Shown here: piece by piece, positions 317 through 18,694 of the stretch | Layout: the number at the start of each line of letters is the position of its first letter | Numbering within the stretch: position 1 is the first letter of the stretch | Assembly: GCA_900550495.1 (NCBI GenBank) | Contig: URSJ01000004.1 | Span: 7,908 to 71,907, forward strand | Source of the DNA: an uncultured Rickettsiales bacterium | GTDB taxonomy: Bacteria; Pseudomonadota; Alphaproteobacteria; Rs-D84 | Reading direction: 5' to 3' | Length of the DNA stretch: 64,000 nucleotides | Translations under genes and position numbers: made by a program | Notes under the pieces: model-generated | The model's input: the letters and a program-made list of their open reading frames with translations, nothing else | Told to the model about the DNA's origin: nothing | The model's database searches: none

Positions 317-1738
317 ATGAATATTCAATTTTCTGATTTAATTGAAAACAGTCCTAACGCCCCCGGCGTCTATAAAATGTATGACTCCGATGGTGCGTTG
401 CTATACGTTGGCAAGGCCAAGAATTTGGCCAATCGCTTACGACAATACGTGGACGTGTCAAAACTGGAATTACACAAACAGGTCATGCGCAGTCTGGTTA
501 CGCGCGTTGATTGGGAAATCGTTCCGACCGAATCGGACGCGCTGATACGCGAACAGGAATTGATTAAAACGCTGCGACCGAAATACAATATTATGCTGAC
601 CGATGGGAAAATGTACCCGATGCTGGCATTGACTAATTCTGAATTTCCACGCCTGCTAAAATTTCGTGGCAAAATATCCCAGCGGCGTGACGTATACGGC
701 CCATATCCATCGGTTGGTGCATTGAACGAAACGATTAAAACAATTCAAAAAGTGTGCCAGATTCGAACATGCACCGACACGTTTATGCGCAATCGCGTGC
801 GTCCATGTTTGTTACACCAAATTGGTCGATGCAGTGCACCGTGCGTTTTACCACAATCAGACTATAACACACGTGTCAGCCTGGCGCGTCGAATTCTGAC
901 CGGTGACAGCGAACCAATCATCGCCGATTTAACGCAACAAATGCAAAAATGTTCTGCTGCAATGGAATTTGAATCGGCTGCTGCGCTCCGTGATAAAATC
1001 GCCGAATTGACACACACGTCAAATCGCGGTATACAGCGCAAACGTGCACATAGCGCAGATTTTGACTGGGCAAAAGCAACCAATGATTTGGAAGATTTTT
1101 TAGGTCTAAAAATATCCATGGCGGGTGTATTTGATAACTCGCATTTATTTGGACGCAATGCGGTTGGCGCAATGATCACATTTGGTCATGATGGGTTTAT
1201 AAAAACAGGATACAGACACTTTAAATTACGCAATGCTGCGGCGGCTGGAAATGACATTGCAATGATGGCCGAATTTGTTGCACGCGCGAACGAAAAAAAC
1301 AATCTGGATTTGATAATCGTTGACGGTGGTATGGCCCAGTGGCGCATCGCCCACCGCGTTGCCTCCAACGTTCCAATCCTTGGTGTCACCAAGGGCGAGG
1401 TTCGCAACGGCGACGAACATTTCATTATGCCCGACGGCACCGTCAATCGTAACGTCCCCAAAGATTCAAAATTGTTTCTGTTATTACGCGCTGTTCGGGA
1501 CGAAGCCCACCGTTTCGTAATAACATACCACCGCACAGTGCGTGCCAAAAAAATGACATCATCAGTCTTAGATGATATCGAGGATATTGGTCCAAAGCGC
1601 AAACATGCCCTGTTGACACATTTTGGTTCGGTTCGTGCAATATCAGATGCAGACATGCCAGCATTGTTACGCGTGCCAGGACTGGGACAAAGTGCTGCTG
1701 AAAAAATTTATGCATATTTCCATTCTGGGGTGGTATAA
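317..1738 (+). CDS. uvrC: Excinuclease ABC subunit C (UvrC), compact 473-aa form
   Basis: GIY-YIG motif (GVYKMYDSDGALLYVGKAKNLANRLRQY), Cys cluster (CTDTF..RPCLLHQIGRCSAPC), UVR motif (EFESAAALRDKIAEL) and C-terminal HhH pair (IGPKRKHALLTHFGS..VPGLG). Start moved from 215 to ATG 317 (MNIQFSDL). Confidence 0.9.
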   Translation: MNIQFSDLIENSPNAPGVYKMYDSDGALLYVGKAKNLANRLRQYVDVSKLELHKQVMRSLVTRVDWEIVPTESDALIREQELIKTLRPKYNIMLTDGKMYPMLALTNSEFPRLLKFRGKISQRRDVYGPYPSVGALNETIKTIQKVCQIRTCTDTFMRNRVRPCLLHQIGRCSAPCVLPQSDYNTRVSLARRILTGDSEPIIADLTQQMQKCSAAMEFESAAALRDKIAELTHTSNRGIQRKRAHSADFDWAKATNDLEDFLGLKISMAGVFDNSHLFGRNAVGAMITFGHDGFIKTGYRHFKLRNAAAAGNDIAMMAEFVARANEKNNLDLIIVDGGMAQWRIAHRVASNVPILGVTKGEVRNGDEHFIMPDGTVNRNVPKDSKLFLLLRAVRDEAHRFVITYHRTVRAKKMTSSVLDDIEDIGPKRKHALLTHFGSVRAISDADMPALLRVPGLGQSAAEKIYAYFHSGVV

Positions 1739-1776
1739 TATGCGTATTCATGATTTATAAGAAAAAGGAGTAAAAC

Positions 1777-2376
1777 ATGAAATTCTTTGTAAACTTTTTA
1801 TCAGCATTCCGCATCGCGGCGGCATTTGCGATAATTCCAACAATCATGTTCGGTATGTACAAGACAACATTTATCCTGTATGTATTGGCAGCAGTATCCG
1901 ATTGGTTTGATGGATACCTGGCACGTAAATATGATGTGTGCAGCAAACTGGGCGGCGTGATGGATCACATTGGCGACAAGTTACTGGTTTGCAACACATT
2001 GATTATGTTGGCGGTAATGATGCCAGTATGGTTTGTTGTTGTTCCTATCATATTGATGATTGCACGCGAATTGTATGTCAGCGGCCTGCGCGAATTCTTG
2101 GGCACCCAGAAAATTGAAATGCCCGTTCCCAAGGCACGTTTTTCACTGGGCAAAATAAAGACAACGTTCCAGATGATTACAATCGCTGCTTTCTTGGGCG
2201 TGTTCGCAATCGGTTCATTGGTCACCCCACAAACGACCAGCCGCGTGTTCGTATATGCGATTTACATCTTGCCCCAGATTGGCATGTGGGGATTGTGGAT
2301 TTCGCTGGGCGCGTCCCTGTTTAGTGCCGGACAATACACACGCACATTCGCAGAAAAATTAAAGAAAATTAAATAA
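1777..2376 (+). CDS. pgsA: CDP-diacylglycerol--glycerol-3-phosphate 3-phosphatidyltransferase
   Basis: CDP-alcohol phosphatidyltransferase motif DWFDGYLARKYDVCSKLGGVMDHIGDKLLV. Multi-TM 199-aa protein with an AAGGAG SD upstream. Confidence 0.85.
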   Translation: MKFFVNFLSAFRIAAAFAIIPTIMFGMYKTTFILYVLAAVSDWFDGYLARKYDVCSKLGGVMDHIGDKLLVCNTLIMLAVMMPVWFVVVPIILMIARELYVSGLREFLGTQKIEMPVPKARFSLGKIKTTFQMITIAAFLGVFAIGSLVTPQTTSRVFVYAIYILPQIGMWGLWISLGASLFSAGQYTRTFAEKLKKIK

Positions 2377-2381
2377 TTAAA

Positions 2382-2408
2382 ATACCGGCAAACTTGCCGG
2401 TATTTTTA
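2382..2408 (+). terminator. Rho-independent terminator after pgsA
   Basis: Hairpin ATACCGGCAAACTTGCCGGTAT followed by TTTTT. Confidence 0.75.
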
Positions 2409-2412
2409 TCGT

Positions 2413-2460
2413 AAAAAAAATGCGCTATATGCACTGTTTCCTGCACATAGCGCGTTTTTT
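2413..2460. terminator. Bidirectional terminator (serves dnaJ on the minus strand)
   Basis: An A8 run, the hairpin GCGCTATATGCAC..TGCACATAGCGC (one mismatch), then a T6 run. Confidence 0.7.
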
Positions 2461-3583
2461 AGAACCACCCTTTTTTGGCCTGTTTTGTTTCTGCAAATTC
2501 GGCCAAAATTTTCTTTTGTTTTTCGGTCAACTTTGTTGGAATTTGCACCCCAACCAAAATATATAAATCACCAAAACTGTTGCTGCGACCTGTGGGCATA
2601 CCGTGACCACGAACACGCAGTTTTTCACCAACCTGGGTGCCTGACGGAACCTTGACCGACAGTTTCTTGTCATCAATGGTATCAACCTCTATCTCGCCCC
2701 CCAGGGCCAGGGTTGTGAACGGCACGTCAATCCGTGAAACCAAATCTGCCCCGACGCGTTCAAAACGCGCATCAGGTGCAATATGAATATCCAAATAGAA
2801 ATCGCCCGGCGTGCCACCGTTTGATGCGGCCTCGCCCTGGCCGGCCAGGCGCAGACGTGTGCCATCATCAATGCCGGCCGGAATCTTGACGTCCAGGGTT
2901 CTGGATTTATGCACCGTCCCCGTTCCATCACAGGCAGTGCATTTTTTATCAATTTTGCGCCCCAGACCACCACAATCAGGGCACGGGGTTTCCATGGCAA
3001 AAAATCCCTGACGCGTGTGAACATATCCCGAACCGCCACACGTTTTACATACTGGTGCCGGTTTGCCATCGGCGGTGCCATTGCCGCCACATTTTTCACA
3101 CGTCACATTGCTGGAAAACTTTACTGTATGCGTTGTGCCAAAATATGCATCACGCAGTGATATTGTAACATCGTCCAACAAATCACGACCGCGATTTTGT
3201 TGTGCGCCACGCGTGGCACCAAAGTCACCAAATCCGAATCCGCGCATTGCCTCGCGCAATATATCGTCCATGCCGGCGCCACCGCCCATATCAAAATGAA
3301 ATGCGCCATTACCGAACGGATTACCACCAAAACCGGCACCTGCCGACGCGCCATTTCCCCCTGCGAACGCCGCATCACCGAATCGGTCATATGCCGCACG
3401 CTTTTGCGGGTCTTTCAGAATATCAAAGGCGTTGTTTATTTCTTTGAATTTCTCTTCAGCAGATTTATCACCAGGATTTTTATCAGGGTGATATTGCATA
3501 ACCAATTTATGGTATGCCTTTTTAATGTCAGCATCCGACGCATCACGCGCGACGCCCAAAACTTCGTATGGATTTTTATTCAT
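2459..3583 (-). CDS. dnaJ: Molecular chaperone DnaJ
   Basis: J-domain (YEVLGV..HPDKN), G/F-rich linker and four CxxCxGxG repeats (CEKCGGNG, CKTCGGSG, CPDCGGLG, CTACDGTG). Start reassigned to ATG 3583 (MNKNPYEVLGV). No dnaK is adjacent. Confidence 0.95.
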   Translation of the reverse strand: MNKNPYEVLGVARDASDADIKKAYHKLVMQYHPDKNPGDKSAEEKFKEINNAFDILKDPQKRAAYDRFGDAAFAGGNGASAGAGFGGNPFGNGAFHFDMGGGAGMDDILREAMRGFGFGDFGATRGAQQNRGRDLLDDVTISLRDAYFGTTHTVKFSSNVTCEKCGGNGTADGKPAPVCKTCGGSGYVHTRQGFFAMETPCPDCGGLGRKIDKKCTACDGTGTVHKSRTLDVKIPAGIDDGTRLRLAGQGEAASNGGTPGDFYLDIHIAPDARFERVGADLVSRIDVPFTTLALGGEIEVDTIDDKKLSVKVPSGTQVGEKLRVRGHGMPTGRSNSFGDLYILVGVQIPTKLTEKQKKILAEFAETKQAKKGWF

Positions 3584-3700: not shown

Positions 3701-5680
3701 ATGACAGAAAATAATACACACACATACGATGCATCAGATATTCAAGTACTAGAAGGATTGGAACCCGTTCGCCTGCGCCCCGGTATGTATATTGGTGGCA
3801 CCGATGAAAAGGCGTGGCACCACCTGCCGATAGAGATTATGGATAACTCTATTGACGAGGCCGTGGCCGGCTTTGCCAAGAAAATCACGGTGAACCTGAT
3901 TGACGCCAAGACGATTGAAATTACCGATGACGGTCGCGGCATCCCGGTTGACGAACACCCAAAATATCCGGGCAAATCCGCATTAGAGGTTATTTTGACC
4001 ACCCTGCATTCTGGGGGCAAGTTTAATAATAATGTTTATAAAACCAGTGGCGGTCTGCACGGCGTCGGCAGTGCGGTTGTCAACGCCCTGTCGTCTGAAA
4101 TGATTGTGACGATTTCCCGTGACGGATACGAATGGCACCAGACGTTTTCACGTGGCAAGGTCACATCGCCAATAACGCGCGGCAACGCAACCAAGGCCCA
4201 CGGGACAAAAATCCGCTTTACCATAGATGATGAAATTTTCGGCACGAACGCTGTGTTCAAACCGATTAAGATTTATCGTATGGCGCGTGCAAAATCATTT
4301 TTATCACGTGGGGTAAAAATTGACTGGCACTGCAATCCAGACCTGTTGACTGATGATATGCAGATTCCAACCGACACGACATTTTATTACCCGGGTGGTG
4401 TCGCAGATTTTCTGGACGAAAAGACAAATTCAAAACCACGCATATTGCCAAAAATTTTCAGTGGCAGTGTTGATTTTCCTGATGATTCTGGCCGCGTAGA
4501 ATGGGCATTGACGGTATTGACCGACGAAAACGGTGCGGCATCTGACGATGGATTTTTTGCGTCATACTGCAATACGATTGCAACAATTGACGGTGGCACA
4601 CACGAAACTGGGTTCAAGGCCGCAATTACCAAGGGGATTAAGGCATACGGGGAAAAGGTGAACAATAAATCCGCGTCCACAATCATTGGCGACGACGTAT
4701 TTGATTCGGTTGCGGCGATTGTATCCGTATTTTATAAAACGCCACAGTTCTTGGGCCAAACCAAAGAGAAATTATCTAACCCTGAAATTGCCCGTTATAC
4801 CGAGGCCGCATTACGTGACCCGTGGGAAATATTTTTGGCTTCGGACCCAAAAACGGCAAACGCATTGCTGGACTTTATCGTAAATCTGGCGAACGCCCGT
4901 ATCAAGACCAAACAGGTCAAGGATATTGCACGCAAGACCCCAACGAAACGCGCCCGTATGCCGGCAAAACTGGCCGATTGTTCCAAGCACGGCATAGAAG
5001 GCACAGAATTATTTATAGTAGAGGGCGAATCGGCTGGCGGTACCGCGAAACAGGCACGCGACCGCGCAACCCAGGCGATTATGCCCCTGCGTGGCAAGGT
5101 TTTAAACGTTATCTCTAATTCCGACGAACGATTCGGCGCGAACAAGGAATTAAACGAACTGATTGATATTATTGGTGCCGGCACGGCCAAGGATTGGGAC
5201 AATTCAAAATTACGCTATGAAAAAATCATCGTGATGACCGATGCCGACGTTGACGGCAGTCATATTGCATCATTGCTGATGGCGTTTTTCTATCAACATA
5301 TGCCACAACTGATTTATGGTGGTCATTTGTATTTATCGTGTCCGCCACTGTATAAATTCACATGTGGCACCGAATCGTTCTATGTGGACAGTGACGAAGA
5401 ACTGGACGCATTGCAAAACGGCAAATATAAAAATAAAAAGGTGGAAATTTCCCGATTCAAGGGTCTGGGCGAAATGATGCCGAACCAGTTAAAGGAAACA
5501 ACTATGTCGCCCAAGACACGTCGTTTAATTCGCGTTGAATTACCACCACGCACCGACGACGGCATAGAAGACACCGAAAAAACGCGCACAATTGTTTCTG
5601 AATTGATGGGCCGCAAACCTGAATTTCGTTTTCGCTTTATCACAGAACACGCGCAATTTGTCAAAGACCTGTTCGTATAA
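3701..5680 (+). CDS. parE: DNA topoisomerase IV subunit B
   Basis: GHKL ATPase, Toprim and type IIA subunit B motifs (LEGLEPVRLRPGMYIGGTD, EGESAGG, PLRGKVLNV, MTDADVDGSHI). The 659-aa length fits ParE rather than the ~800-aa GyrB. Confidence 0.85.
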   Translation: MTENNTHTYDASDIQVLEGLEPVRLRPGMYIGGTDEKAWHHLPIEIMDNSIDEAVAGFAKKITVNLIDAKTIEITDDGRGIPVDEHPKYPGKSALEVILTTLHSGGKFNNNVYKTSGGLHGVGSAVVNALSSEMIVTISRDGYEWHQTFSRGKVTSPITRGNATKAHGTKIRFTIDDEIFGTNAVFKPIKIYRMARAKSFLSRGVKIDWHCNPDLLTDDMQIPTDTTFYYPGGVADFLDEKTNSKPRILPKIFSGSVDFPDDSGRVEWALTVLTDENGAASDDGFFASYCNTIATIDGGTHETGFKAAITKGIKAYGEKVNNKSASTIIGDDVFDSVAAIVSVFYKTPQFLGQTKEKLSNPEIARYTEAALRDPWEIFLASDPKTANALLDFIVNLANARIKTKQVKDIARKTPTKRARMPAKLADCSKHGIEGTELFIVEGESAGGTAKQARDRATQAIMPLRGKVLNVISNSDERFGANKELNELIDIIGAGTAKDWDNSKLRYEKIIVMTDADVDGSHIASLLMAFFYQHMPQLIYGGHLYLSCPPLYKFTCGTESFYVDSDEELDALQNGKYKNKKVEISRFKGLGEMMPNQLKETTMSPKTRRLIRVELPPRTDDGIEDTEKTRTIVSELMGRKPEFRFRFITEHAQFVKDLFV

Positions 5681-5735
5681 AACCCTGTTTTTTTCCTGTT
5701 GTGGGTAATTTCCTGTCGTGAACGCTTTCGCACGT

Positions 5736-5769
5736 GTCATTCCGGGGCGCGTCCCCGGAATCCAGGCAT
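5736..5769. repeat. REP-like palindromic unit (GTCATTCC-GGGG..CCCC-GGAATCCAGG-CAT)
   Basis: Hairpin TTCCGGGG-CGCGT-CCCCGGAA. The tail GAATCCAGGCAT recurs as GAATCCAGGTCAT at 7690-7702 and 14111-14123. Confidence 0.6.
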
Positions 5770-5818
5770 AACAAAGCCCCTGCGGGCCCTCCCTATTTCT
5801 GTCCCTCACAACGAATAC

Positions 5819-5846
5819 TTGACAATTTATATTTTTGTCCTATATT
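5819..5846 (+). promoter_or_regulatory. Sigma70-type promoter (TTGACA, 16-nt spacer, TATATT) for the 5881 gene
   Basis: Consensus -35 TTGACA at 5819-5824 and TATATT at 5841-5846. An AGAGGGA SD precedes ATG 5881. Confidence 0.55.
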
Positions 5847-5880
5847 ATACGTATAGAATAACACATAGAGGGATATAAAA

Positions 5881-6324
5881 ATGAAATTCGGACCAACACA
5901 TAAAAAGAAAAACACATATATTGTCAAATTGAATAATTTGATGATTGACGCGTTTGCGTTCGGTATGTGCGATAAAATGCCACTGCCGGTTATAATCCTT
6001 AATGGCCAGCCGACACAGAACGACCAGAACGGCTGGCTGAAATGCACAAAATTTCCAAACCCTGGCGCGGTCGAAATGCAGGCAACATTCAGCGAAATGA
6101 AACCTGTGATGGGTGAAAAAGTTGCGTCCACGATTATAGAATACCTGGACAAAGAAACGGGCCGTCCTGTTGCGACACTGTTTCCGACCGTGTTATACAT
6201 ACACGACAACTATGAAAACGATTATATGGCCCATCTGAATCACGCATCGCGCCAAGATTTAAATCATCAACTCGCCCTGCGCCAGGAATTAATCAAAAAA
6301 TATATAATGTCCAAGAATCGTTAA
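5881..6324 (+). CDS. Hypothetical protein (147 aa), no recognised domain
   Basis: The ORF has its own promoter, SD and a shared bidirectional terminator. It converges on family copy A. Confidence 0.55.
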   Translation: MKFGPTHKKKNTYIVKLNNLMIDAFAFGMCDKMPLPVIILNGQPTQNDQNGWLKCTKFPNPGAVEMQATFSEMKPVMGEKVASTIIEYLDKETGRPVATLFPTVLYIHDNYENDYMAHLNHASRQDLNHQLALRQELIKKYIMSKNR

Positions 6325-6350
6325 AAAACGGGGTTTTGCCCCGTTTTTTT
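6323..6350. terminator. Bidirectional terminator (AAAAAA-CGGGGTTTTGCCCCG-TTTTTTT)
   Basis: Perfect GC stem flanked by A and T runs. It is nearly identical to the terminator at 7833-7861. Confidence 0.8.
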
Positions 6351-7548
6351 ATTGAATACCGACACTGAAATCATCGCCCCACGTGGCAACAACCTGGCCA
6401 CCGATGGTGCATTGCACATCTTCAAATCCGCCAGATACCTGGTTCTTTTTTACGATATTACTGGTCACCAACGCGCCCGTTGTCCCCAGCACAACCGCTG
6501 CAATGGAATCAGATGCCAAACGTGCCGTGTTAAAGTTCCCCTGCTTATCGCGCCACACAGACACCTTGAAATCATCAGACATCGCGTTCAACCGTGTCCA
6601 GGCGCGTTTAATTTTCAAACGCGACGCATTTTGTTCCGAAATAATAACCTGGGAATTATCGCCCGATATTGTCACAGAATACAGATTCTTTTCCTCTGGC
6701 AATTCCTGGCAATATTCACTGCGCCCCGCATTATAGTAAATTTCAACATTTTTCAATTTACCACTTTCATATTTAGGCACGCTAACCTTTGTATTATTGC
6801 CGACATCAAGACAGACCTTCAATACAGGCAACGCCTTCCATTTATGGCTGGTCTGGGTGTCACCATGATTTTCATTTGTGCATTCAAAAACAAATGCATC
6901 AGCCCCCTGGGTGGCTGAACCCCCAACCGCACCACCAAATGACAACCAAATTTTATCACCAGGATTTTTTACTTCGCACCCCTTAATTTTTGACTTTGTT
7001 CCTGGATTATTACAATCATAACACTTTTTATTTGCTTCACTTGCTGGTCGCAGCCCATCAGTTGCACAGAATTCATATCCTGCACTGTCCACCCACAAAT
7101 ATTCATCCATATATGCATCTCTGGTCGCACTCTTGGCGCATGTTCCAGTGGCGATGCGAACCGACGCAGTTGTTTTCTTGGCCGGTGCCGGCGTAGATGT
7201 AGTGGTTTTCTCGGCTGGCGCGCCGACCAAGTCGGCCGGCACTTCTATTTCTTTTAAGCATACAAGGTATACTGTTCCAATTCCTGCAATTTCTCCTAGA
7301 GGACCTTGCGCTTTATAGCCTTTCTCACAATTAACAACCCCAGACCGGCAGCCAGACTCCGCCGTTAATATTTCAGCGCATGCTGTTGCATGTTTATGCC
7401 CATAGCACGGCACAACCACGTTGCACACATTGTCCCAGCTGCCACCAGCGCCGCCACCGCTGGTGCTGCCACCGCCCCACTCAGCCACAGCATTTAAGTT
7501 AAATAGAAACACTCCACAAAAAGCGGCTAAAACAATGCGTCTTATCAT
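6349..7548 (-). CDS. Secreted cysteine-rich protein, family copy A (399 aa): conserved signal peptide and Gly linker, variable Cys-rich core, conserved C-terminal ~92-aa domain
   Basis: Signal peptide MIRRIVLAAFCGVFLFNLNAVA followed by EWGGGSTSGGGAGGSW. The C-terminus NAMSDDFKVSVW..NFNTARLASDSIAAVVLGTTGALVTSNIVKKNQVSGGFEDVQCTIGGQVVATWGDDFSVGIQ is shared with copies B and C. Confidence 0.8.
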   Translation of the reverse strand: MIRRIVLAAFCGVFLFNLNAVAEWGGGSTSGGGAGGSWDNVCNVVVPCYGHKHATACAEILTAESGCRSGVVNCEKGYKAQGPLGEIAGIGTVYLVCLKEIEVPADLVGAPAEKTTTSTPAPAKKTTASVRIATGTCAKSATRDAYMDEYLWVDSAGYEFCATDGLRPASEANKKCYDCNNPGTKSKIKGCEVKNPGDKIWLSFGGAVGGSATQGADAFVFECTNENHGDTQTSHKWKALPVLKVCLDVGNNTKVSVPKYESGKLKNVEIYYNAGRSEYCQELPEEKNLYSVTISGDNSQVIISEQNASRLKIKRAWTRLNAMSDDFKVSVWRDKQGNFNTARLASDSIAAVVLGTTGALVTSNIVKKNQVSGGFEDVQCTIGGQVVATWGDDFSVGIQ

Positions 7549-7624
7549 ACCTCTATCCCCTTTTTATGCCGAAAATAAACCTGGCGTTTAAAAACGACAT
7601 TCCTACTTGTATTCTAATGTTCTT

Positions 7625-7654
7625 ATTTTACCATATTTTTCACCCCCCGACCAA
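7625..7654 (-). promoter_or_regulatory. Promoter of family copy A: TTGGTC, 18-nt spacer containing G6, extended -10 TGGTAAAAT
   Basis: Gene-orientation sequence TTGGTCGGGGGGTGAAAAATATGGTAAAAT. It is conserved upstream of copies B and C. A ~70-nt conserved leader follows. Confidence 0.5.
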
Positions 7655-7672
7655 GAACAAATTTACGCCATA

Positions 7673-7702
7673 TCCGGGGGTTCGTCCCGGAATCCAGGTC
7701 AT
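7673..7702. repeat. REP-like palindromic unit
   Basis: Hairpin TCCGGG..CCCGGA followed by ATCCAGGTCAT. It belongs to the same family as the units at 5736 and 14111. Confidence 0.55.
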
Positions 7703-7734
7703 GGTGCAAATAGTGCCGAATACCACCGCCTTTT

Positions 7735-7798
7735 GTCATTCCAGGGCCTGCGACGGGTTGACGGCAGAAAATGATAAAGCCCCCCGGCCTGCGACGGG
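7735..7798. repeat. REP-like unit with an internal 13-nt direct repeat
   Basis: Starts with GTCATTCC. GGCCTGCGACGGG occurs at 7745-7757 and again at 7786-7798. Confidence 0.55.
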
Positions 7799-7832
7799 GA
7801 CGACAGATGGGGAACTTACACTTTCTTGCAAT

Positions 7833-7861
7833 AAAAAAACGGGGTTTTACCCCGTTTTTTT
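7833..7861. terminator. Bidirectional terminator (A7-CGGGGTTTTACCCCG-T7) after family copy B
   Basis: GC hairpin with flanking A and T runs. It is a paralogue of the terminator at 6323-6350. Confidence 0.8.
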
Positions 7862-8963
7862 ATTGAATACCAACACTGAACTGGTCACCCCAGCCGGCAA
7901 CCGTCTGGCCGCCAACCTGGCAATTTATATCTTCAAATCCGCCAGATACCTGGTTCTTTTTTACGATATTACTGGTCACCAACGCGCCCGTTGTCCCCAA
8001 TACCACCGCCGCAATGGAATCAGATGCCAAACGTGCAGTATTAAAATTACCATCCGCGTTTTTCCACACCGACACCTTGAAATCATCAGACATCGCGTTC
8101 AGTTTTTTATACACAGACGTTATTTTCGTCCGGGATTGGTTTTGTTCTGAACTGACCAACGCCGCGCCTTTGACACATTCTTTGCCGTCTTTTATTTCAT
8201 AGCCTGGTTTGATACATTTACATTCGCCATTGGTCCACTGGGCACCAACAACCCGGCCACATTCTGTCACCTTGGGATTAGTAATACAGTTTTTGGTATC
8301 TGACGAATAGATTTTTGTCGTATCCAGACATATACACTGGTTGTTTTCCCATTTGGCAACTGACGCGCCCAAACCCTTACAGTTTGTTTCGTCTGTTGGG
8401 ACACATGTATTTTGAGCATTACGTTCATATCCGGCTGTGCATTCACACTTCTTTTTATCCGCGCTTTGTGTTAAATGCGCATCGCCACTGCACGAACACT
8501 TTTTTTTACTCCACGTTCCACCAGAGTTTTCACAGTCCTTTTGTTTACCACTTGTTGAAGAATTGCTTGACGCAACCGGTTGAACAACTGTTGTAGTTGT
8601 GTGGACTACCGCCAGCTGTGCTGACGCGGTTGTGCCACTGGATTGTTTTACACAATTGCGATACAACGGTTGTCCTTTACTTGTAGTCCAACCAGAAATC
8701 GGGCTAGCCAATTTATAATCGCTGTTACATTCAACAATTGCCTCTGTGCAAGTAGTTTTGTTCGAATCGCTTTTTTTATAACACGTCTTTGCATGTTGTT
8801 TTTTGTCACAGGTCACATACTTGTCACAATCAATGTCATCATCGCCCCAGCTGCCACCACCGCCACCACCGCCGGTGCTGCCACCGCCCCATTCTGCAGC
8901 AACAGCATTTAAGTTAAATAGAAACATTCCACAAAAAGCGGCTAAAACAATGCGTCCTTTCAT
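7860..8963 (-). CDS. Secreted cysteine-rich protein, family copy B (367 aa)
   Basis: Signal peptide MKGRIVLAAFCGMFLFNLNAVA followed by AEWGGGSTGGGGGGGSW. I count 21 Cys after the signal peptide. There are three C..W-x4-CxC..C modules and the conserved C-terminal domain ending FSVGIQ. Confidence 0.8.
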   Translation of the reverse strand: MKGRIVLAAFCGMFLFNLNAVAAEWGGGSTGGGGGGGSWGDDDIDCDKYVTCDKKQHAKTCYKKSDSNKTTCTEAIVECNSDYKLASPISGWTTSKGQPLYRNCVKQSSGTTASAQLAVVHTTTTVVQPVASSNSSTSGKQKDCENSGGTWSKKKCSCSGDAHLTQSADKKKCECTAGYERNAQNTCVPTDETNCKGLGASVAKWENNQCICLDTTKIYSSDTKNCITNPKVTECGRVVGAQWTNGECKCIKPGYEIKDGKECVKGAALVSSEQNQSRTKITSVYKKLNAMSDDFKVSVWKNADGNFNTARLASDSIAAVVLGTTGALVTSNIVKKNQVSGGFEDINCQVGGQTVAGWGDQFSVGIQ

Positions 8964-9039
8964 ACTCTTATCCCCCTTTTTATGCCGAAAATAAACAGGC
9001 GTTTAAAAACGACATTCCAATTTGTATTCTAATGTCCTT

Positions 9040-9068
9040 ATTTTACTATATTTTTCACCCCCGACCAA
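9040..9068 (-). promoter_or_regulatory. Promoter of family copy B: TTGGTC, 17-nt spacer containing G5, TAAAAT
   Basis: Gene-orientation sequence TTGGTCGGGGGTGAAAAATATAGTAAAAT. It is homologous to 7625-7654 but has one G fewer in the spacer. Confidence 0.5.
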
Positions 9069-9187
9069 GAATAAATTTACGCCATGTCCAGGGTCGCCGG
9101 GGAAATACAAAACAATGCGATATTTACCAGAAAAATTATTTATCGTATGCGCACACACAGGATTTCGCCCGGCGCACAGCCACATTT

Positions 9188-11885: not shown

Positions 11886-12734
11886 TTACGATTCCCAGAT
11901 TTGCAACAGGCCCTCGTAATCAAATGTTTCACATTCTTCGGGCTTTTCGGTGCCGTTCCAAATATCTTTGTCGCATTCGTTACGCAACTCTTTCAGATAA
12001 CGACCAAATTCATTATATTCAGACGCCTTTTCCTTTTTTAATACCAGCAACTGGCTGCGCAACTGTTCATTTTGACTCAGCGATTTTTGTCCTTCAACAG
12101 AACCACCTATCAACTTGTTTCCGAACAGTTCCATGATACCAACGCCAACGGCCGCACCACCAACAGCACCGCCAACGGTCGCCCATGTCCGTGCAGACTT
12201 TTTCGCATCCAAGATACGTTTTTTTATCTTGCCTTCGTCTGTCCATTCACCACACGTGATTGTGCGTCCCATTTCAAAATATTTTGCCGGAACATCAGAC
12301 ACGCTGATTTTAGGATCGGACGATTTCATTTCAACCCTAACAAAGCACGTATTGTTTTTCGGTTCTTCGACATCTTCGACCATGCTGGCATAGTTGTTCA
12401 GATTACTGTATCGTGACGCCCAAACAAAGGTATTACCCATACCAACATTGTTATTGATGCACGCATTTTTTTCCTTTTCGCGCATATCAACATCTGAATT
12501 TGTGTTTTCTGGCTCAACACGCGTGCTGGATTTACTGGTATCTGGTGTTATTGTTGGATTGCTGGACACAGACATCGTCGCCATAGACGATATTTGCGCC
12601 TTGGACGCGGTCGCACGATTGGCTGCGCCAACCATCTGAGCTTGCACTGAACGACGCGACTGACCCGCCGGCACCAATGCCAGTGCAGGCATTGCCACAA
12701 CACAGCACAAAATCGCAGAAATTATTTTTTTCAT
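11886..12734 (-). CDS. Secreted or membrane protein with a glycine-zipper segment (282 aa), function unknown
   Basis: Signal peptide MKKIISAILCCVVAMPALA. Gly-zipper/TM-like segment WATVGGAVGGAAVGVGIMELF followed by a coiled-coil-like tail with Cys pairs. Confidence 0.7.
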   Translation of the reverse strand: MKKIISAILCCVVAMPALALVPAGQSRRSVQAQMVGAANRATASKAQISSMATMSVSSNPTITPDTSKSSTRVEPENTNSDVDMREKEKNACINNNVGMGNTFVWASRYSNLNNYASMVEDVEEPKNNTCFVRVEMKSSDPKISVSDVPAKYFEMGRTITCGEWTDEGKIKKRILDAKKSARTWATVGGAVGGAAVGVGIMELFGNKLIGGSVEGQKSLSQNEQLRSQLLVLKKEKASEYNEFGRYLKELRNECDKDIWNGTEKPEECETFDYEGLLQIWES

Positions 12735-13920: not shown

Positions 13921-14123
13921 GTGAAGCACCCAGGTGTCGTTTTTTCATGGGTTGCTTCACTACGTTCACAATAACAATGGCGCCAGTCATTGTTAGTTGT
14001 CATTCCTGCGCAGGCGGGAATAAGGGGCTTTAAAATTACTCCTGCCCATTGTTGCACGATATACGTAAAGCGCCCCGCAAAATCGTTGGATTTTTTTTGT
14101 AGGGGGCCAAGAATCCAGGTCAT
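13921..14123. repeat. Composite of palindromic REP/MITE-like repeats in a 360-bp non-coding gap
   Basis: Hairpin GTGAAGCA..TGCTTCAC at 13921-13960, palindrome GTCATTCCTGCGCAGGCGGGAAT at 13999-14021, and GAATCCAGGTCAT at 14111-14123. Confidence 0.6.
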
Positions 14124-14174
14124 CGGACTGTGCGCCAGGGGCGCATTTTATCTGCGCTCTGAAATATGAACTCT

Positions 14175-14201
14175 AAAAAACGCGCCAGCGGCGCGTTTTT
14201 T
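14175..14201. terminator. Bidirectional terminator (A6-CGCGCCAGCGGCGCG-T6) after family copy C
   Basis: GC hairpin flanked by A and T runs. Confidence 0.8.
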
Positions 14202-15709
14202 ATTGCATTCCTACACTAAACTCGTCGCCCCAGCCAGCAACAGTTTGACCACCTATCTGACAATTAATGTCTTCAAATCCGCTGGACACTTGATTCTTTT
14301 TTACCACGTTACTGGTTACCAACGCACCTGTTGTCCCCAATACCACCGCCGCAATCGAATCGGATGTCAGACGCGCAGTATTAAAGTTACCATCTGCATT
14401 CTTCCATACAGATACCTTAAAATCATTTGACATCCCGTCCAGTTTTTTATAAAGGTCACCTATTTTTATCCGAGATTCTGCCTGTTCTTCGGTCTTTATC
14501 AGCTCATCACTCTTGACGCACTGGGTTTTCTCCTCGTTCACAACATACCCTGCGGTTACACATTCGCACGTGCCAATCCATTTTGCACCAGGAATTTTTT
14601 TACATGCAACCATATCCGGATTATCTTCGCATTCGGTGCCGTTAAATTGCCGATATTGTCCACTGCATTTACACTGTTTTTCAACATCATTCCAGAATGC
14701 CCCAGACGACGTAGCAGCTTCGCATTTTTGTTTTAATGCGGCTATATTTGTCAGATTGCAACGACGATTGCTTTCGTCACGCATATAGTCCGTATCGTTT
14801 ATGCAGGTGCATTCACCATTGCTTAATTTTAAGTTCTTGGCCGAATCACACGTGCATTTGCTGCCGTTCCATGTCCCATAAGAGTTTTCACATTTTTCTC
14901 GAACCTGCTAGTTGTGTTCTTGCTGACGCTTTTTAACCACCGCTGGATTTTCTATGCAACTTTTTGCATCCCTGGCAACAATCCATTGATTGGCACAGGC
15001 ACCATCATTAAGTCGAATTTGCCACCCATTAGACATGCAAGTCTGTGTGCACTTGCCTGTCACATGGCTAAGGCTTGTCAGACCGTCAACCACTTTGCCA
15101 CCCGTCATCTGGCACTTTGCCGCATTATTTGAATCACCAGTTGAGTACGCTTTACCTGTCGCATCTTCACAATTGGCATTTTGCCTTGCACAGCCAGTCT
15201 TGTCTGCATTTGGTTTATAGTTTTCTTCGCAAGTATAATACACACAACCTGTGCTGCCCCCTGTGTTTACTATTTGTTCGCCACCAGACTCTTTCTTGGT
15301 CGCAAACCCATCAAGCAAATAGCGTGTTTTGACCTTAGCCTTTTCTCTTGCTGTTACACCCAACGGGCTATTTTTGCATAGCCTCGTAGGATTAGATTTA
15401 TGCCATTCGTCATATGCACTCCAACTTATATCAACACATGTATATATATCGACTATCTCGCCATGTATATCCGTTTGACCAACATTCGCCTGATAGCCGC
15501 ATTCGTTATCACCAAAACTATAATCATCAGAATCACAAGAATAACATTGACCACCACCAATCGTAGCCTGTATGTATTCCTTGTTTTCGCCAATCTTGCT
15601 GGTATCTTTGGGGCACGCAAAAGCCTTGCAGTTCTTTGCCCCATATGAATCAGAAATCCCGACAAATATACAAACACAACATATTGATAGTAACCAGATT
15701 TTTTTTCAT
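14200..15709 (-). pseudogene. Cysteine-rich family copy C, disrupted by an A8 tract frameshift at codons 2-4 and one in-frame TAG
   Basis: ATG at 15709 is followed by A8 (15699-15706), which runs out of frame into a TGA. With A7 the frame reads MKKIWLLSICCVCIFVGISDSYG and stays open to TAG at 14908-14910. Family sequence continues in the same frame to the conserved C-terminus (..FSVGMQ). Confidence 0.65.
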
Positions 15710-15904: not shown

Positions 15905-15937
15905 AAAAAACACCGGCAGTCGCCGGTGTTTTTTTTT
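15905..15937. terminator. Bidirectional terminator (A6-CACCGGCAGTCGCCGGTG-T9) after the secretin gene
   Basis: GC hairpin flanked by A and T runs. Confidence 0.8.
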
Positions 15938-17564
15938 AGTTCAGTGGTGCACCCCAATGCTGTTGTATACTGCGTTCAGCGTCCATCGGACTGACTAATA
16001 CCTGGGGTGTCAAGATAACAACCAGAGTATCGCGCGTCGCCGATGCTTCTCGCGACCCCGACAGTGCCATAAAGTCTGGATCACCCAAACCATAACGCGT
16101 ATCATTATTGGTCTGCTTTTCAAAGCCTGATACAACCAACATCTGACCAGATTCCATAATAACTTCTTGCATGAAACTACGTTCTTCAACCTCTGGCAAT
16201 TGTAATGTAACTTCGCCGATGGTCTGAGTGGACATTTTCAGCAATTCACGCACCGACATACGGAACAGCAACAGAATCTTGCCGTTTTCCAAAACATTTG
16301 GCAACAGTTGCATTGAAAATCCAGTTTCCAGATCGTCCTGGTCAACAGTGCTGGATTCAACCGTTGTAAAATTACGTGATTCAAAACGTTTGATATATCC
16401 CGTGGTCTTGGTGTTGTTCACAGGCGCCACACGGTTGCTGCGCGTAGTGACACCGACGTTCGTAACCAATGATACCTTGCCCTGCTTTGCCAATGCTTCT
16501 ATCAACGCGTTACTGCCTGCGCCACGTGCCAAAGAACCATTTTTAATCTGGTCTTGGGTATACGCCCCTGCAACAGTAGACGAACCCTCGACATGGGTGG
16601 CACCCGTCAAAGCCGACACAGTATTAGACAAAACCGCGATGTTCATTGAACTGGCTTCGGTCGTGGCCAAATTGTTCTTTGGGTTGGCAACAATGTTCAA
16701 GCCCGACGCACTATTGATTGCCGCCGCCAAATTCAAACCAAATGCCGAATCGTTTGAAATCGAAACCTGCAACACCTTGACATCAATGGTCACCAACTGG
16801 GACAAACGTTTGTTTTGTCTGTTGATATATTCACCAACGCGTGTCAATACCGATGGTGGTGCAGTAACCGTGATTGTCCCCAAACTGCGCGATACAGTAA
16901 AGTCTGCATTGTCGGTCTTGCCAACGATACCGGAAATCGCCTTTTCAATTTCATCCCACTCTTTTAATGTAGATTCCAATGCCACCTGGTTACCGTCATC
17001 AGTTTGAACAGCAGTCTGGTATGACACATCAGTCCCCAAAGCATACAATGTAAATGTCTTGGTTTCTGTTTCATAGAAAACAATTGATGTTTTGTCGTAA
17101 TACCACAACAGGTCTAAATCCGTCGCAACTTGGGACAACAGACCGGACAATTTGCCAGTATATGCAACATTAATCGTCTTTTTTAATTTTTCAGAATTTA
17201 CCTGGTTATCAATTTTAACGGGGATTCCAGTCATAGAATTGATGTTATTTGCCAACACCTGTAACGTGACCGGCTCGTTCAACAAGATTGTAACCCCAGT
17301 ATCGGTTTCAAATTGCGATGGCAAATTGTTACGATGTTCCAAGACCGTCGATTTGTTACCCAACCATACACCTTCGGACATGGACACTGTATCACCACTG
17401 GCAACCTTGGCTCGTGGATTTTTGGCCATTTCAAATGCATCATATGCATTAACAAAATCCTGGTCAACCGTTGACGCCACTTTGGCGGATTCCTTGACTG
17501 CACACCCAGCCAGCGCAAATGTCAATATGCCGCACATAAATATTATCTTTGCTGATTTTATCAT
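15936..17564 (-). CDS. Lipoprotein secretin of the type IVb pilus PilN/BfpB/TcpC type
   Basis: Lipobox LAGC at the N-terminus. C-terminal secretin domain (VKVLQVSISNDSAFGLNL, LVTNVGVTTRSNRVAPV, GFSMQLLPNVLENGKILL, MLVVSGF, TLVVILTPQVL). Confidence 0.8.
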   Translation of the reverse strand: MIKSAKIIFMCGILTFALAGCAVKESAKVASTVDQDFVNAYDAFEMAKNPRAKVASGDTVSMSEGVWLGNKSTVLEHRNNLPSQFETDTGVTILLNEPVTLQVLANNINSMTGIPVKIDNQVNSEKLKKTINVAYTGKLSGLLSQVATDLDLLWYYDKTSIVFYETETKTFTLYALGTDVSYQTAVQTDDGNQVALESTLKEWDEIEKAISGIVGKTDNADFTVSRSLGTITVTAPPSVLTRVGEYINRQNKRLSQLVTIDVKVLQVSISNDSAFGLNLAAAINSASGLNIVANPKNNLATTEASSMNIAVLSNTVSALTGATHVEGSSTVAGAYTQDQIKNGSLARGAGSNALIEALAKQGKVSLVTNVGVTTRSNRVAPVNNTKTTGYIKRFESRNFTTVESSTVDQDDLETGFSMQLLPNVLENGKILLLFRMSVRELLKMSTQTIGEVTLQLPEVEERSFMQEVIMESGQMLVVSGFEKQTNNDTRYGLGDPDFMALSGSREASATRDTLVVILTPQVLVSPMDAERSIQQHWGAPLN

Positions 17565-17608
17565 TTATCTTTCTCCCTGTGACGATGGTTGACACAACCC
17601 CACGCGTT

Positions 17609-18517
17609 TTATTCCTCGTTCGTAGAAACCACCAAGACGCGATTTCCCTTGTAGAATTTTGCATATGGAATCGGTGTTGCGCGCCCAAAGTTACGAACCA
17701 AAGCAGACGCCACGTCAACAAAGCGTCCTTTGAATACGGCGCTGGCCTCTATTGGATATTCGCGCGATGTCGCCCAAACCAAATCCCAACCTTCTTTGTC
17801 ACACCAGTTTTGTAAAACCTCACGCAGGGTCTGGCCATTTGCAACAACCCAAGAACGCACCTGGTCTGCGACCTTTTGTGCTGGCTCTGCATCAGCTGAT
17901 ACGTTTACAGAAATCTCTGTTTCTTCGTTAACAATTTCGCCGTTTTCATCGGTTGTTGTTTTTGTCATACCCGTCTTGGCAGCGAAAGCATCGTAACTAT
18001 CGGCGTATTTTGCACAGTTCTTGCGTCCACTGCGTGCAACAGACAAAATTGCACCACCATCATCTTCCAACATTTCTCGATGCAATAACGGCATTTCTGA
18101 GCCAGAATTGCACTCGTCATCAAACCCGACCGGAATCTGGGTTCCATGCAGCATATTTGCACCACCAGACCAGTCACCAAAACCATCACCCGTTCCCAGA
18201 TTAAAATTATTTTCAACAACCAGGTCTGCGCCAATCTTGGACACAATGCGAATATTATCAGATTGCGAACTCTGGGCACACGCACCATCTTCGCATGCGA
18301 TTTCAACATCGGCATCCGTTCCCGCCATCGGCCATACCGGTACCGCTGCCTGAACCGTTTCAGTTGTTTCAACCGTCTGTACCTGCTGATTAGCATCCGA
18401 TGATTTATCCTGGGTATAAAAAACCTCACTCGTGACAATCTGGGGCAATGATTCTGCGGCAAAGCAATAACCAGCAGCCGTCGCAAACATTGCAAAAACT
18501 AAAATCTTACGGAACAT
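17609..18517 (-). CDS. TcpQ/PilL-like protein (C-terminal toxin-coregulated-pilus protein Q-type domain)
   Basis: Signal peptide MFRKILVFAMFATAAGYCFA. The C-terminus WVVANGQTLREVLQNWCDKEGWDLVWATSREYPIEASAVFKGRFVDVASALV..FYKGNRVLVV matches the TcpQ/PilL pattern. Start set to ATG 18517 behind AGGAAAGGAAG. Confidence 0.65.
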   Translation of the reverse strand: MFRKILVFAMFATAAGYCFAAESLPQIVTSEVFYTQDKSSDANQQVQTVETTETVQAAVPVWPMAGTDADVEIACEDGACAQSSQSDNIRIVSKIGADLVVENNFNLGTGDGFGDWSGGANMLHGTQIPVGFDDECNSGSEMPLLHREMLEDDGGAILSVARSGRKNCAKYADSYDAFAAKTGMTKTTTDENGEIVNEETEISVNVSADAEPAQKVADQVRSWVVANGQTLREVLQNWCDKEGWDLVWATSREYPIEASAVFKGRFVDVASALVRNFGRATPIPYAKFYKGNRVLVVSTNEE

Positions 18518-18694
18518 AAAAACTTCCTTTCCTGAACAAGTTATCATATTTTTTTACTTATTATAACAATTTGACCGAATCTGTGCAAGACCAAATCGCA
18601 CCCCACAAAATTTATCGTTTGCAAGATAAAATCGCACGAATCGGTAAAAGATGTTATACTTAGAACCATCAGACATGCTATCAAGGGTAAAATT

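Follow-up and report, generated by a model that had tools for sequence, protein, structure and literature searches.

We identify, in a 64,000-nucleotide stretch of contig URSJ01000004.1 (hereafter, the window), a variable family of exported or envelope proteins that carries a novel conserved C-terminal domain (CTD) and whose members occupy an unusually clear domain-shuffling locus between dnaA and parE. The source is an uncultured alphaproteobacterium from the gut that belongs to the Rs-D84 / Candidatus Enterousia group and has a genome of less than 1 Mb, and the window contains two tandem genes, A and B, and a degraded third copy, C, all of which are members of an undescribed family confined to gut alphaproteobacteria of this group. 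Rs-D84 is the order that holds Enterousia; its genomes span 0.75–1.0 Mb and lack most biosynthesis, and a symbiotic or parasitic life on other cells has been proposed for it (PMC12306168). These proteins are not described in two papers on Enterousia and Rs-D84 (PMC12306168, PMC8992543). We consider it probable that they are modular ectodomains exported on a CTD anchor, reshuffled by recombination and used in contact with host or partner cells.

A protein collection clustered at 90% identity contains 535 homologues of B, none of which is named. When a profile is built from the last 100 residues of the family (alignment A2), it matches 949 clusters at 50% identity (with E ≤ 1e-10 for 920), and the match occurs once per protein, at the C-terminus or within about six residues of it in nearly all of the 150 proteins listed (P0126 being an exception). 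The family is thus sharply bounded in this search, of a kind that had been proposed in a sequence-only reading of the window. A scan of one genome per species gives 261 matches, of which the best 80 were retained, such that copy counts per genome are a floor. Among the matches retained, all titles are those of uncultured gut Alphaproteobacteria, Candidatus Enterousia or 'Rickettsiales' metagenome-assembled genomes, with samples from human (Hadza), ruminant, rabbit and bird sources, in keeping with the published picture of the order and with the host-associated alphaproteobacterium that the sequence-only reading had envisaged. Its comparison with the variant surface-protein families of Giardia and mycoplasmas does not extend to copy number: when the window is queried with A, B and C by tblastn, the C-terminal block turns up three times and no more, and no single species genome contributes more than three of the 78 retained loci (again a floor). 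No viral relatives are found in IMG/VR contigs, and a phage origin of the family was rejected on this ground.

A and B are intact open reading frames (ORFs) in tandem, as had been read from the sequence, and each encodes a signal peptide, a Gly linker, a small 6-Cys β domain (Na in A and Nb in B), a Thr- or Ser/Thr-rich linker, a core, a stalk helix and the CTD (Table 1). The cleavage region of both proteins (...NLNAVA followed by EWGGG) contains no Cys and no lipobox; LLAAC-like sequences are seen by eye in a few relatives. B has 22 Cys, one of which lies in the signal peptide, in agreement with the earlier count of 21 in the mature protein, and these include CxC pairs at 156/158, 173/175, 210/212 and 248/250 but no CXXC; A has a single CxxC at 176/179. 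Across the family, the ectodomain Cys count is even in 218 of the 240 members with a recognizable signal peptide and CTD, most of the 22 odd-numbered exceptions being visibly due to a crude cleavage-site rule, while the CTD contains exactly one Cys in all 240. The even count supports a fully disulfide-bonded exported ectodomain, and in combination with the lone CTD Cys, it suggests that the tail Cys is in another chemical situation, namely a reduced compartment or an intermolecular bond. From these features, the ectodomain is predicted to be modular, disulfide-bonded and Sec-targeted.

The AlphaFold2 model of B, built with 67 homologues, is consistent with this succession of modules. The signal peptide and Gly linker are disordered, the N domain has its strands between residues 48 and 106, with a mean predicted local distance difference test score (pLDDT) of 81–96 per 10-residue block over residues 41–110, and the blocks covering residues 51–100 and 141–280 have means of at least 90. 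The Ser/Thr linker is of low complexity. Three repeats at approximately residues 136–266 are each modeled as a short helix with β hairpins (pLDDT > 90), and they are followed by one 28-residue helix just ahead of the CTD. The N domain of A is modeled with the same range of scores as that of B, and its core (residues 134–300) is β-rich with a pLDDT of ~50–89. A and B share homologous sequence over the ~60 residues that come after the Gly linker, in contrast to the earlier claim that nothing between the conserved blocks could be aligned. What does not align between them is not the single hypervariable core of 200–280 residues that had been proposed; we instead observe two unrelated core types, and the cores of B and C align at 51% identity over 237 residues. 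The A-type core (alpha) is found in 36 clusters from close relatives only, mostly in ~290-residue proteins with their own signal peptide.

Matches to known domains are confined to the Cys repeats. Searches of A, B and C against Pfam, NCBIfam and, by profile, PDB sequences returned nothing for the N domain or the A core, and the CTD, for which 26 isolated domains were also searched, has no match in these libraries either, which bears out the earlier impression of no recognizable domain. The C-x-C...G-Y...C units of B, C and their relatives score against DUF5874 (PF19202), with 29.1, 28.7 and 34.0 bits for the relatives P0089, P0098 and P0118 (gathering cut-off 27.1) and 15.5 bits, below the cut-off, for B itself, and the relative P0004 has a weak Pfam match to cEGF (E = 0.032). 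The DUF5874 match covers the Cys repeats and not the CTD, and we found no mention of DUF5874 in the literature searched. Foldseek gave no match at E ≤ 0.001 for the B model against the PDB and viral libraries or for the A model against the PDB; the hints were weak throughout, either EGF-like or fibre-like, with B matching EGF domains of LRP2, LDLR, factor Xa and PvRipr (E of 0.03–1), and the A core has no structural match in the PDB. Neither DUF5874 nor the EGF/cEGF modules cover the CTD, N domain or A core, and the structural matches do not fall below E = 0.03. Outside the dnaA slot, a 720-residue member from another species (locus L008, positions 1144–3306) has five tandem copies of a ~70-residue Cys-rich module, which indicates that the family expands by internal repetition besides shuffling.

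The ends of the genes are shared, as the sequence-only reading had noted for the upstream, leader, signal-peptide and C-terminal blocks. Over the 135 nucleotides upstream of the ATG, identity is 87.7% between A and B, 65.7% between A and C and 66.4% between B and C; the first ~120 coding nucleotides of A and B are 90% identical; and over the last 279 nucleotides, the values are 79% (A–B), 72% (A–C) and 80% (B–C), all compared with shuffled controls that never exceed 56%. At the protein level, the C-terminal block is 78% identical over 100 residues between A and B and 73% over 96 residues between A and C (E of 1e-40 to 1e-45). A repeat search of the window recovers the same 3′ block (268 nucleotides, three copies) and 5′ block (206 nucleotides, two copies).

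The 5′ cassettes probably function as promoters, to judge from the consensus-like elements listed in Table 1; after these, A has a leader of ~75 nucleotides and then a ribosome-binding site (GGGGA/GAGG). This promoter core is also found in other strains, in front of the signal-peptide types SP1, SP3 and SP4, and the short alpha genes have a different promoter (TATAAT). The proposed common terminator of A and B is also found, as near-identical hairpins with a T run. The conserved leader yields no regulatory RNA in Rfam, which finds only two tRNAs in the window. The G tract in the promoter spacer is G6 in A and G5 in B, and its length tracks the cassette type across nine strains; it is therefore not evidence of switching, and a phase-variable promoter tract was discarded as an explanation.

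To describe the dnaA–parE slot, we compared the window with six other configurations on nine loci of related strains, in which we distinguish signal-peptide types SP1–SP4, the Na and Nb domains, the alpha core and the EGF repeat core of B (Table 1). Of 80 loci queried by tblastn, 51 have dnaA, 41 have parE in convergent orientation and 27 have a homologue of the 147-residue ORF, which the near-identical strains L079, L081 and L082 lack. In a cluster analysis of L001–L078, 46 loci contain dnaA, and in 42 of these it is located upstream in the same orientation. All seven configurations contain one alpha-core gene and one EGF-core gene, with differences in their order, in the 5′ cassette and signal peptide and in the N modules. 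Throughout, ParE is 98.9–99.8% identical; for DnaA, four configurations have values of 97.4–99.8% and three of ~85%. Relative to the window, L079/L081 are 99.8% identical in DnaA and 99.2–99.4% in ParE, whereas L085 is only 85% identical in DnaA but 99.85% in ParE, which places a large recombination boundary inside the slot.

The clearest case of exchange is gene A itself. Its nucleotides 1–377 match nucleotides 1–380 of the slot-2 gene of L081 at 95.0%, and its nucleotides 381–1200 match nucleotides 54–873 of the slot-1 gene of L081 at 96.7%, with the breakpoint near window positions 7168–7172, in the Thr/Pro/Lys-rich linker. From this alignment, A is demonstrably a chimera in which the 5′ third of the one gene appears joined to the body of the other. 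The slot-2 gene of L081 likewise switches to the sequence of the slot-1 gene of L085 within a linker overlap of ~50 nucleotides. The architecture of A recurs in independent assemblies, as P0046 (399 residues, 96% identity, from other runs) and in L085/L086 (411 residues), and it is thus not an assembly artefact. The sequence-only reading had suggested that conserved flanks allow recombination and that strain comparison might reveal chimeric cores; the breakpoint in A, the mosaic structure of C described below and the seven module combinations between ParE and DnaA agree with both, and they support the conserved cassettes as recombination sites.

Repeats and, in one strain, a nuclease gene accompany the slot. 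The slot genes are bordered by copies of a REP-like palindrome, TCCGGGG(N)CCCGGAATCCAGG, at 5741–5766 and at 7673–7698, the latter just upstream of the A promoter, with a weak copy at 14107–14124. In L090, a REP-like array inside the slot (5461–5940) is read as a spurious 159-residue ORF, and beside it, between the two slot genes, lies a gene for a 99-residue GIY-YIG nuclease.

Copy C, which the sequence-only reading had called degraded, is a pseudogene of a 505-residue member with two lesions, a frameshift caused by A8 in place of A7 and a premature TAA stop, and it retains a promoter-like cassette and an ATG (Table 1). With one A removed, C is 86% identical to P0032. Residues 1–285 and the C-terminal ~100 residues are nearly identical to this relative, and most positions differ from it over residues ~286–385, inside the EGF-like repeats; by alignment, C thus reads as a mosaic relative to P0032. 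In L001 and L003 (ends of contigs CAKQSE010000003/4, from a related species), the C slot appears to hold two divergent family genes whose 5′ cassettes form inverted repeats, with both contigs breaking inside these genes; such a pair could serve as a substrate for inversion.

Conserved flanks around variable cores, a pseudogene copy whose flanks are intact, the frameshifting homopolymer right after the ATG of C, the G5/G6 tract and the apparent divergent pair of the CAKQSE contigs are also what one would expect of programmed phase or antigenic variation of the kind known for Vlp/Vsp, VlsE, Msp2 and VSPs, by homopolymer slippage or by gene conversion from donors such as C. We nevertheless consider this very improbable. 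The additional nonsense codon in C looks like decay rather than a reversible switch, the G tract follows the cassette type across strains, both A and B come with a promoter-like region and a terminator of their own and no archive of promoterless cassettes is seen in the window, the window holds only three copies and all of the variation that we observe lies between strains. The idea of switching within a strain finds no evidence here.

What we favor instead is exchange between genes and between strains. Homologous recombination at the shared 5′ cassette, the linker and the stalk/CTD would re-assort modules between the tandem genes and between strains, and the dnaA–parE slot would thereby be a hot spot of diversity at the population level. 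The exchangeable modules would be a promoter/leader/signal-peptide cassette, at least one small 6-Cys β domain, a Thr/Pro/Lys-rich linker and a core of either EGF-like repeats or the unrelated β-rich type.

The regions of the slot differ in their rates of change. By the Nei–Gojobori method, and with small substitution counts, the ratio of non-synonymous to synonymous substitution rates (dN/dS) is 0.01–0.11 in the flanking dnaA and parE, 0.27, 0.93 and 1.93 in the N domains and linkers, 0.16–0.92 in the cores and 0–0.08 in the CTD, values that indicate a regional contrast and not proof of positive selection. This contrast supports a reading in which the ectodomain evolves fast while the C-terminal module appears frozen. 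For the A-type CTD, a comparison of the window with L079/L082 gives a dS as high as 1.3–1.6, compared with 0.07–0.30 for the flanks, which indicates that the slot holds old allelic lineages that move between near-identical genomes.

The CTD is the most conserved part of the family, with ~72 residues and 30 invariant columns of the 100 in alignment A2. It begins with W-x4-G-x-FNT-x-RLASDS and continues into a hydrophobic stretch with a small residue at every fourth position, (A/G)52, G56, (A/G)60 and S64 in A2 numbering. This stretch is followed by KK and by an acidic tail of ~30 residues with one invariant Cys, which ends in VGIQ (KKNQVSGGFEDI.C..GGQ.VA.WGD.F.VGIQ). Short β strands are modeled in this tail. 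To judge from its sequence, the CTD is probably the membrane-anchoring or sorting part of the protein, and it would most likely cross the membrane once, as a helix, with the tail on the far side (N-out/C-in). It is, however, more conserved and less confidently modeled than a plain anchor, and it possibly assembles as an oligomer or with a partner, perhaps in the outer membrane or in connection with the nearby secretin.

Which membrane this would be bears directly on the function. The window encodes a secretin, a TcpQ-domain protein, LolA, the apolipoprotein N-acyltransferase Lnt, a β-barrel outer-membrane protein, a penicillin-binding protein and M23/LysM and SPOR proteins, and the cell is thus a normal diderm with peptidoglycan. 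The family could then consist of type I periplasmic proteins anchored in the inner membrane, which would scaffold, sense or bind imported material inside the envelope without ever being exposed at the surface, with their diversity arising from relaxed constraint, from hitch-hiking on recombination or from phage or bacteriocin pressure that reaches the periplasm. A signal peptide with one C-terminal hydrophobic segment followed by KK, the diderm envelope genes, a lone Cys past the hydrophobic segment that would suit a reduced cytoplasmic tail and dN/dS values mostly below 1 are all in accord with this explanation. We judge it unlikely because the extreme modular turnover and the deep allelic lineages between near-identical flanks are typical of exposed molecules and because the 30-residue tail and juxtamembrane motif are conserved beyond what a passive anchor needs.

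An outer-membrane location would put the ectodomain at the surface. Here, the CTD would be an oligomeric anchor, similar to that of trimeric autotransporters or to the helical or glycine-zipper arrangements of Wza and SlyB, or a module through which the folded protein docks to the nearby secretin system and is exported. The 28-residue helix directly precedes a conserved C-terminal module of at most 75 residues, the low monomer confidence and short tail strands would suit a module that folds only as an oligomer, and the small-xxx-small zipper suggests helix packing. Furthermore, directly upstream of C (15936–18547, minus strand), a gene for a secretin of the lipoprotein type (Pfam Secretin, N-terminus ...LAGCAV) occurs together with one for a TcpQ-domain protein, a pair that looks like an outer-membrane module of the type IVb-pilus or type II secretion system (T2SS) kind and that is found in the same arrangement in strain L087. 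Secretin pathways can pass folded, disulfide-bonded proteins. Secretin adjacency is, however, seen in only one of 80 related loci within 3-kb flanks, and linkage to a secretin as a family rule was rejected accordingly. There is no Pfam match to the YadA anchor or a glycine zipper even at E ≤ 10, the family ends in ...VGIQ where the β-barrel outer-membrane protein of the window has the canonical ...GIRFMF, only ~30 residues follow the hydrophobic segment and a Cys-rich passenger is atypical for type V secretion. We therefore hold such an outer-membrane anchor to be decidedly unlikely, less so only than programmed variation.

When compared with known variable surface proteins, the layout is most reminiscent of the variant-specific surface proteins (VSPs) of Giardia, and the genetics of loci diversified by recombination. 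VSPs are the best architectural analogue, with a type I layout and without a sequence relationship: they also have a signal peptide, a variable Cys-rich ectodomain and a conserved C-terminal hydrophobic anchor with a short, invariant, Cys-containing tail. VSPs use CXXC motifs, whereas the family uses CxC and EGF-like spacing; their tail is the five-residue CRGKA, whereas the family has ~30 residues and no CRGKA; and they are eukaryotic, with ~200 genes of which one is expressed at a time, whereas the family has a handful of genes, with a promoter-like region in front of both A and B. Anaplasma msp2/p44, Borrelia vlsE, Neisseria pilE/pilS and the outer-protein loci of Helicobacter and Bacteroides resemble the slot in that conserved segments bracket variable ones, with mosaic alleles, breakpoints in shared sequence and a diverged locus between near-identical housekeeping flanks. 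Unlike msp2/p44, vlsE and pilE/pilS, no expression site with an archive of silent cassettes is found in the window with its three copies, and the exchange appears as whole-domain shuffling between two tandem genes and between strains rather than as segmental conversion within a cell.

Other resemblances concern single parts. The sharing of the 5′ cassette recalls mycoplasma Vlp/Vsp/Vsa, in which tandem paralogues likewise have a common promoter/leader/signal-peptide cassette and homopolymers near the promoter or start; these are lipoproteins whose C-terminal regions are repetitive and lack a conserved domain, whereas A and B lack a lipobox, are Cys-rich and have their conserved module at the C-terminus. 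The stalk and short anchor recall trimeric autotransporters (YadA/Hia), which share with the family a signal peptide, a shuffled variable passenger and a conserved C-terminal anchor of fewer than 100 residues, and to whose helical stalk the single 28-residue helix of the B model may correspond. The YadA anchor (PF03895) has no match in A, B and C (E ≤ 1) or in the 26 isolated CTDs (E ≤ 10), and unlike in these autotransporters, there is no terminal aromatic residue (...F.VGIQ), one hydrophobic segment replaces four amphipathic strands and the passenger is disulfide-rich. LPXTG, PEP-CTERM, GlyGly-CTERM and type IX secretion system (T9SS) CTD sorting signals have no NCBIfam or Pfam match, and the family differs from them in the ~30 conserved residues past the basic pair. 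Of the defining features of these known families that we compared, none is clearly present, and the proteins thus resemble them in part and belong to none.

Taken as a whole, our preferred reading is that a Sec signal peptide leads into a disulfide-bonded modular ectodomain, a stalk helix and the near-invariant CTD of ~72 residues and that the ectodomains would be adhesins or receptors for a host or partner cell under diversifying selection. Contact with such cells is the most likely function that we can infer. Several points weigh against this. In a diderm cell, a signal peptide with a C-terminal hydrophobic anchor makes the ectodomain periplasmic by default, and a periplasmic ectodomain fits diversification driven by adhesion or immunity poorly unless there is a further export step. 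The hydrophobic stretch has a Kyte–Doolittle hydropathy of 1.62–1.66 over 19 residues, at the usual threshold for transmembrane segments, and AlphaFold2 calls no helix there in the A and B models, contrary to the helix that the sequence-only reading had assigned to this Gly/Thr-rich segment; pLDDT is below 50 in the CTD (in B, over residues 298–302, 305–351 and 356–367). dN/dS exceeds 1 in one small segment only, with 2 synonymous and 14 non-synonymous substitutions, and much of the pattern could be due to relaxed constraint together with recombination. The alpha core is limited to its 36 clusters of close relatives. The family, its modules, the chimeras, the contrast in selection and the disulfide parity are shown here, and the anchor topology, the membrane concerned, surface exposure and an adhesive role are inferred.

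Beyond the family itself, we observe three further features of the window. A 282-residue exported protein (11886–12734, minus strand) with a glycine-zipper hydrophobic segment (WATVGGAVGGAAVGVGIMELFG) and a charged tail has no Pfam match and, unlike its variable neighbours, is called at the same length and position in all six covering loci (L079–L082, L085 and L087). Over positions 1–64000, GC skew is negative to the left and right of dnaA alike and does not switch sign at the gene; the replication origin may not adjoin dnaA in this genome. A single 669-residue ORF (54479–56488, minus strand) contains both YbeY endoribonuclease and Lnt domains, and it is either a fusion of an unusual kind or a pair of genes called as a single one.

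Table 1. Parts of the family genes, their surroundings in the window and the composition of the dnaA–parE slot in related strains.
Feature	Residues	Window positions	Strand	Remarks
parE/gyrB-type topoisomerase subunit		3701–5680	+	Convergent; downstream slot boundary
147-residue ORF		5881–6324	+	No known domain; convergent with A, overlaps A terminator
Terminator after A		6323–6343	-	CGGGG CAAAA CCCCG + T6; overlaps 3′ end of convergent 147-residue ORF
Gene A		6349–7548	-	Intact ORF, 399 residues
A signal peptide	1–22	7483–7548	-	
A Gly linker	23–38	7435–7482	-	
A domain Na	39–100	7249–7434	-	Small 6-Cys β domain
A linker	101–133	7150–7248	-	Thr/Pro/Lys-rich
A alpha core	134–300	6649–7149	-	β-rich, 8 Cys
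A stalk helix	301–327	6568–6648	-	AlphaFold2
A CTD	328–399	6352–6567	-	
A 5′ cassette		7549–7683	-	87.7% identical to that of B
A -35-like element		7654–7649	-	TTGGTC, by consensus
A promoter spacer		G6 at 7648–7643	-	18 nucleotides, with G6
A extended -10 element		7633–7625	-	TGG-TAAAAT, by consensus
Terminator after B		7833–7854	-	CGGGG TAAAA CCCCG + T7
Gene B		7860–8963	-	Intact ORF, 367 residues
B signal peptide	1–23	8895–8963	-	
B Gly linker	24–39	8847–8894	-	
B domain Nb	40–110	8634–8846	-	6-Cys β domain
B linker	111–140	8544–8633	-	Ser/Thr-rich
B core	141–266	8166–8543	-	Three EGF-like Cys repeats, 14 Cys
B stalk helix	267–294	8082–8165	-	AlphaFold2
B CTD	295–367	7863–8081	-	
B 5′ cassette		8964–9098	-	Same promoter core and leader, G5 tract
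dnaA		9188–10462	-	Upstream slot boundary; Pfam domains on orthologues
Copy C		14200–15709	-	Pseudogene of 505-residue family member
C ATG		15709–15707	-	
C A8 tract		15706–15699	-	After ATG; A7 in intact orthologues L087 and L088
C premature TAA		14908–14910	-	From GAA
C CTD		14203–14420	-	Intact
Slot, window				Slot 1, SP1 + Nb + EGF (B); slot 2, SP1 + Na + alpha (A)
Slot, L079 and L082				Slot 1, SP1 + Nb + EGF; slot 2, SP2 + alpha (293 residues)
Slot, L081				Slot 1, SP2 + alpha (290 residues); slot 2, SP1 + Na + EGF (374 residues)
Slot, L085				Slot 1, SP3 + large N domain + EGF (485 residues); slot 2, SP1 + Na + alpha (411 residues)
Slot, L089				Slot 1, SP4 + Nb-like + Na + long linker + alpha (538 residues); slot 2, SP4 + large N domain + EGF (494 residues)
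Slot, L090				Slot 1, SP1 + another N domain + EGF (435 residues); slot 2, SP4 + Na + alpha (526 residues)

Rs-D84 and Enterousia are widespread in the guts of humans (e.g., the Hadza), ruminants, horses and birds, and in genomes of less than 1 Mb, a lineage-specific, fast-evolving, exported set of proteins, one of very few such sets, is an obvious candidate for the contact interface. The slot is also a clear case from nature of two tandem genes that exchange whole domains at defined joints in linkers and cassettes. With ~950 clusters that are currently unannotated, the CTD is a new and highly conserved domain that could be modeled in Pfam or NCBIfam, and its invariance makes it a handle for antibodies or probes with which to find and sort these uncultured cells. 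A bolder reading, which we offer tentatively and think somewhat unlikely, is that the CTD is a new anchoring or sorting device that displays folded, disulfide-rich modular receptors of a eukaryote-like EGF type on the surface of an obligately partner-dependent bacterium, perhaps as an oligomer or with the two slot proteins paired through the lone tail Cys, and that the slot beside dnaA is a dedicated domain-shuffling locus that sets host or partner specificity. If true, this would make the family a bacterial counterpart of the VSP-type coats of protozoa.

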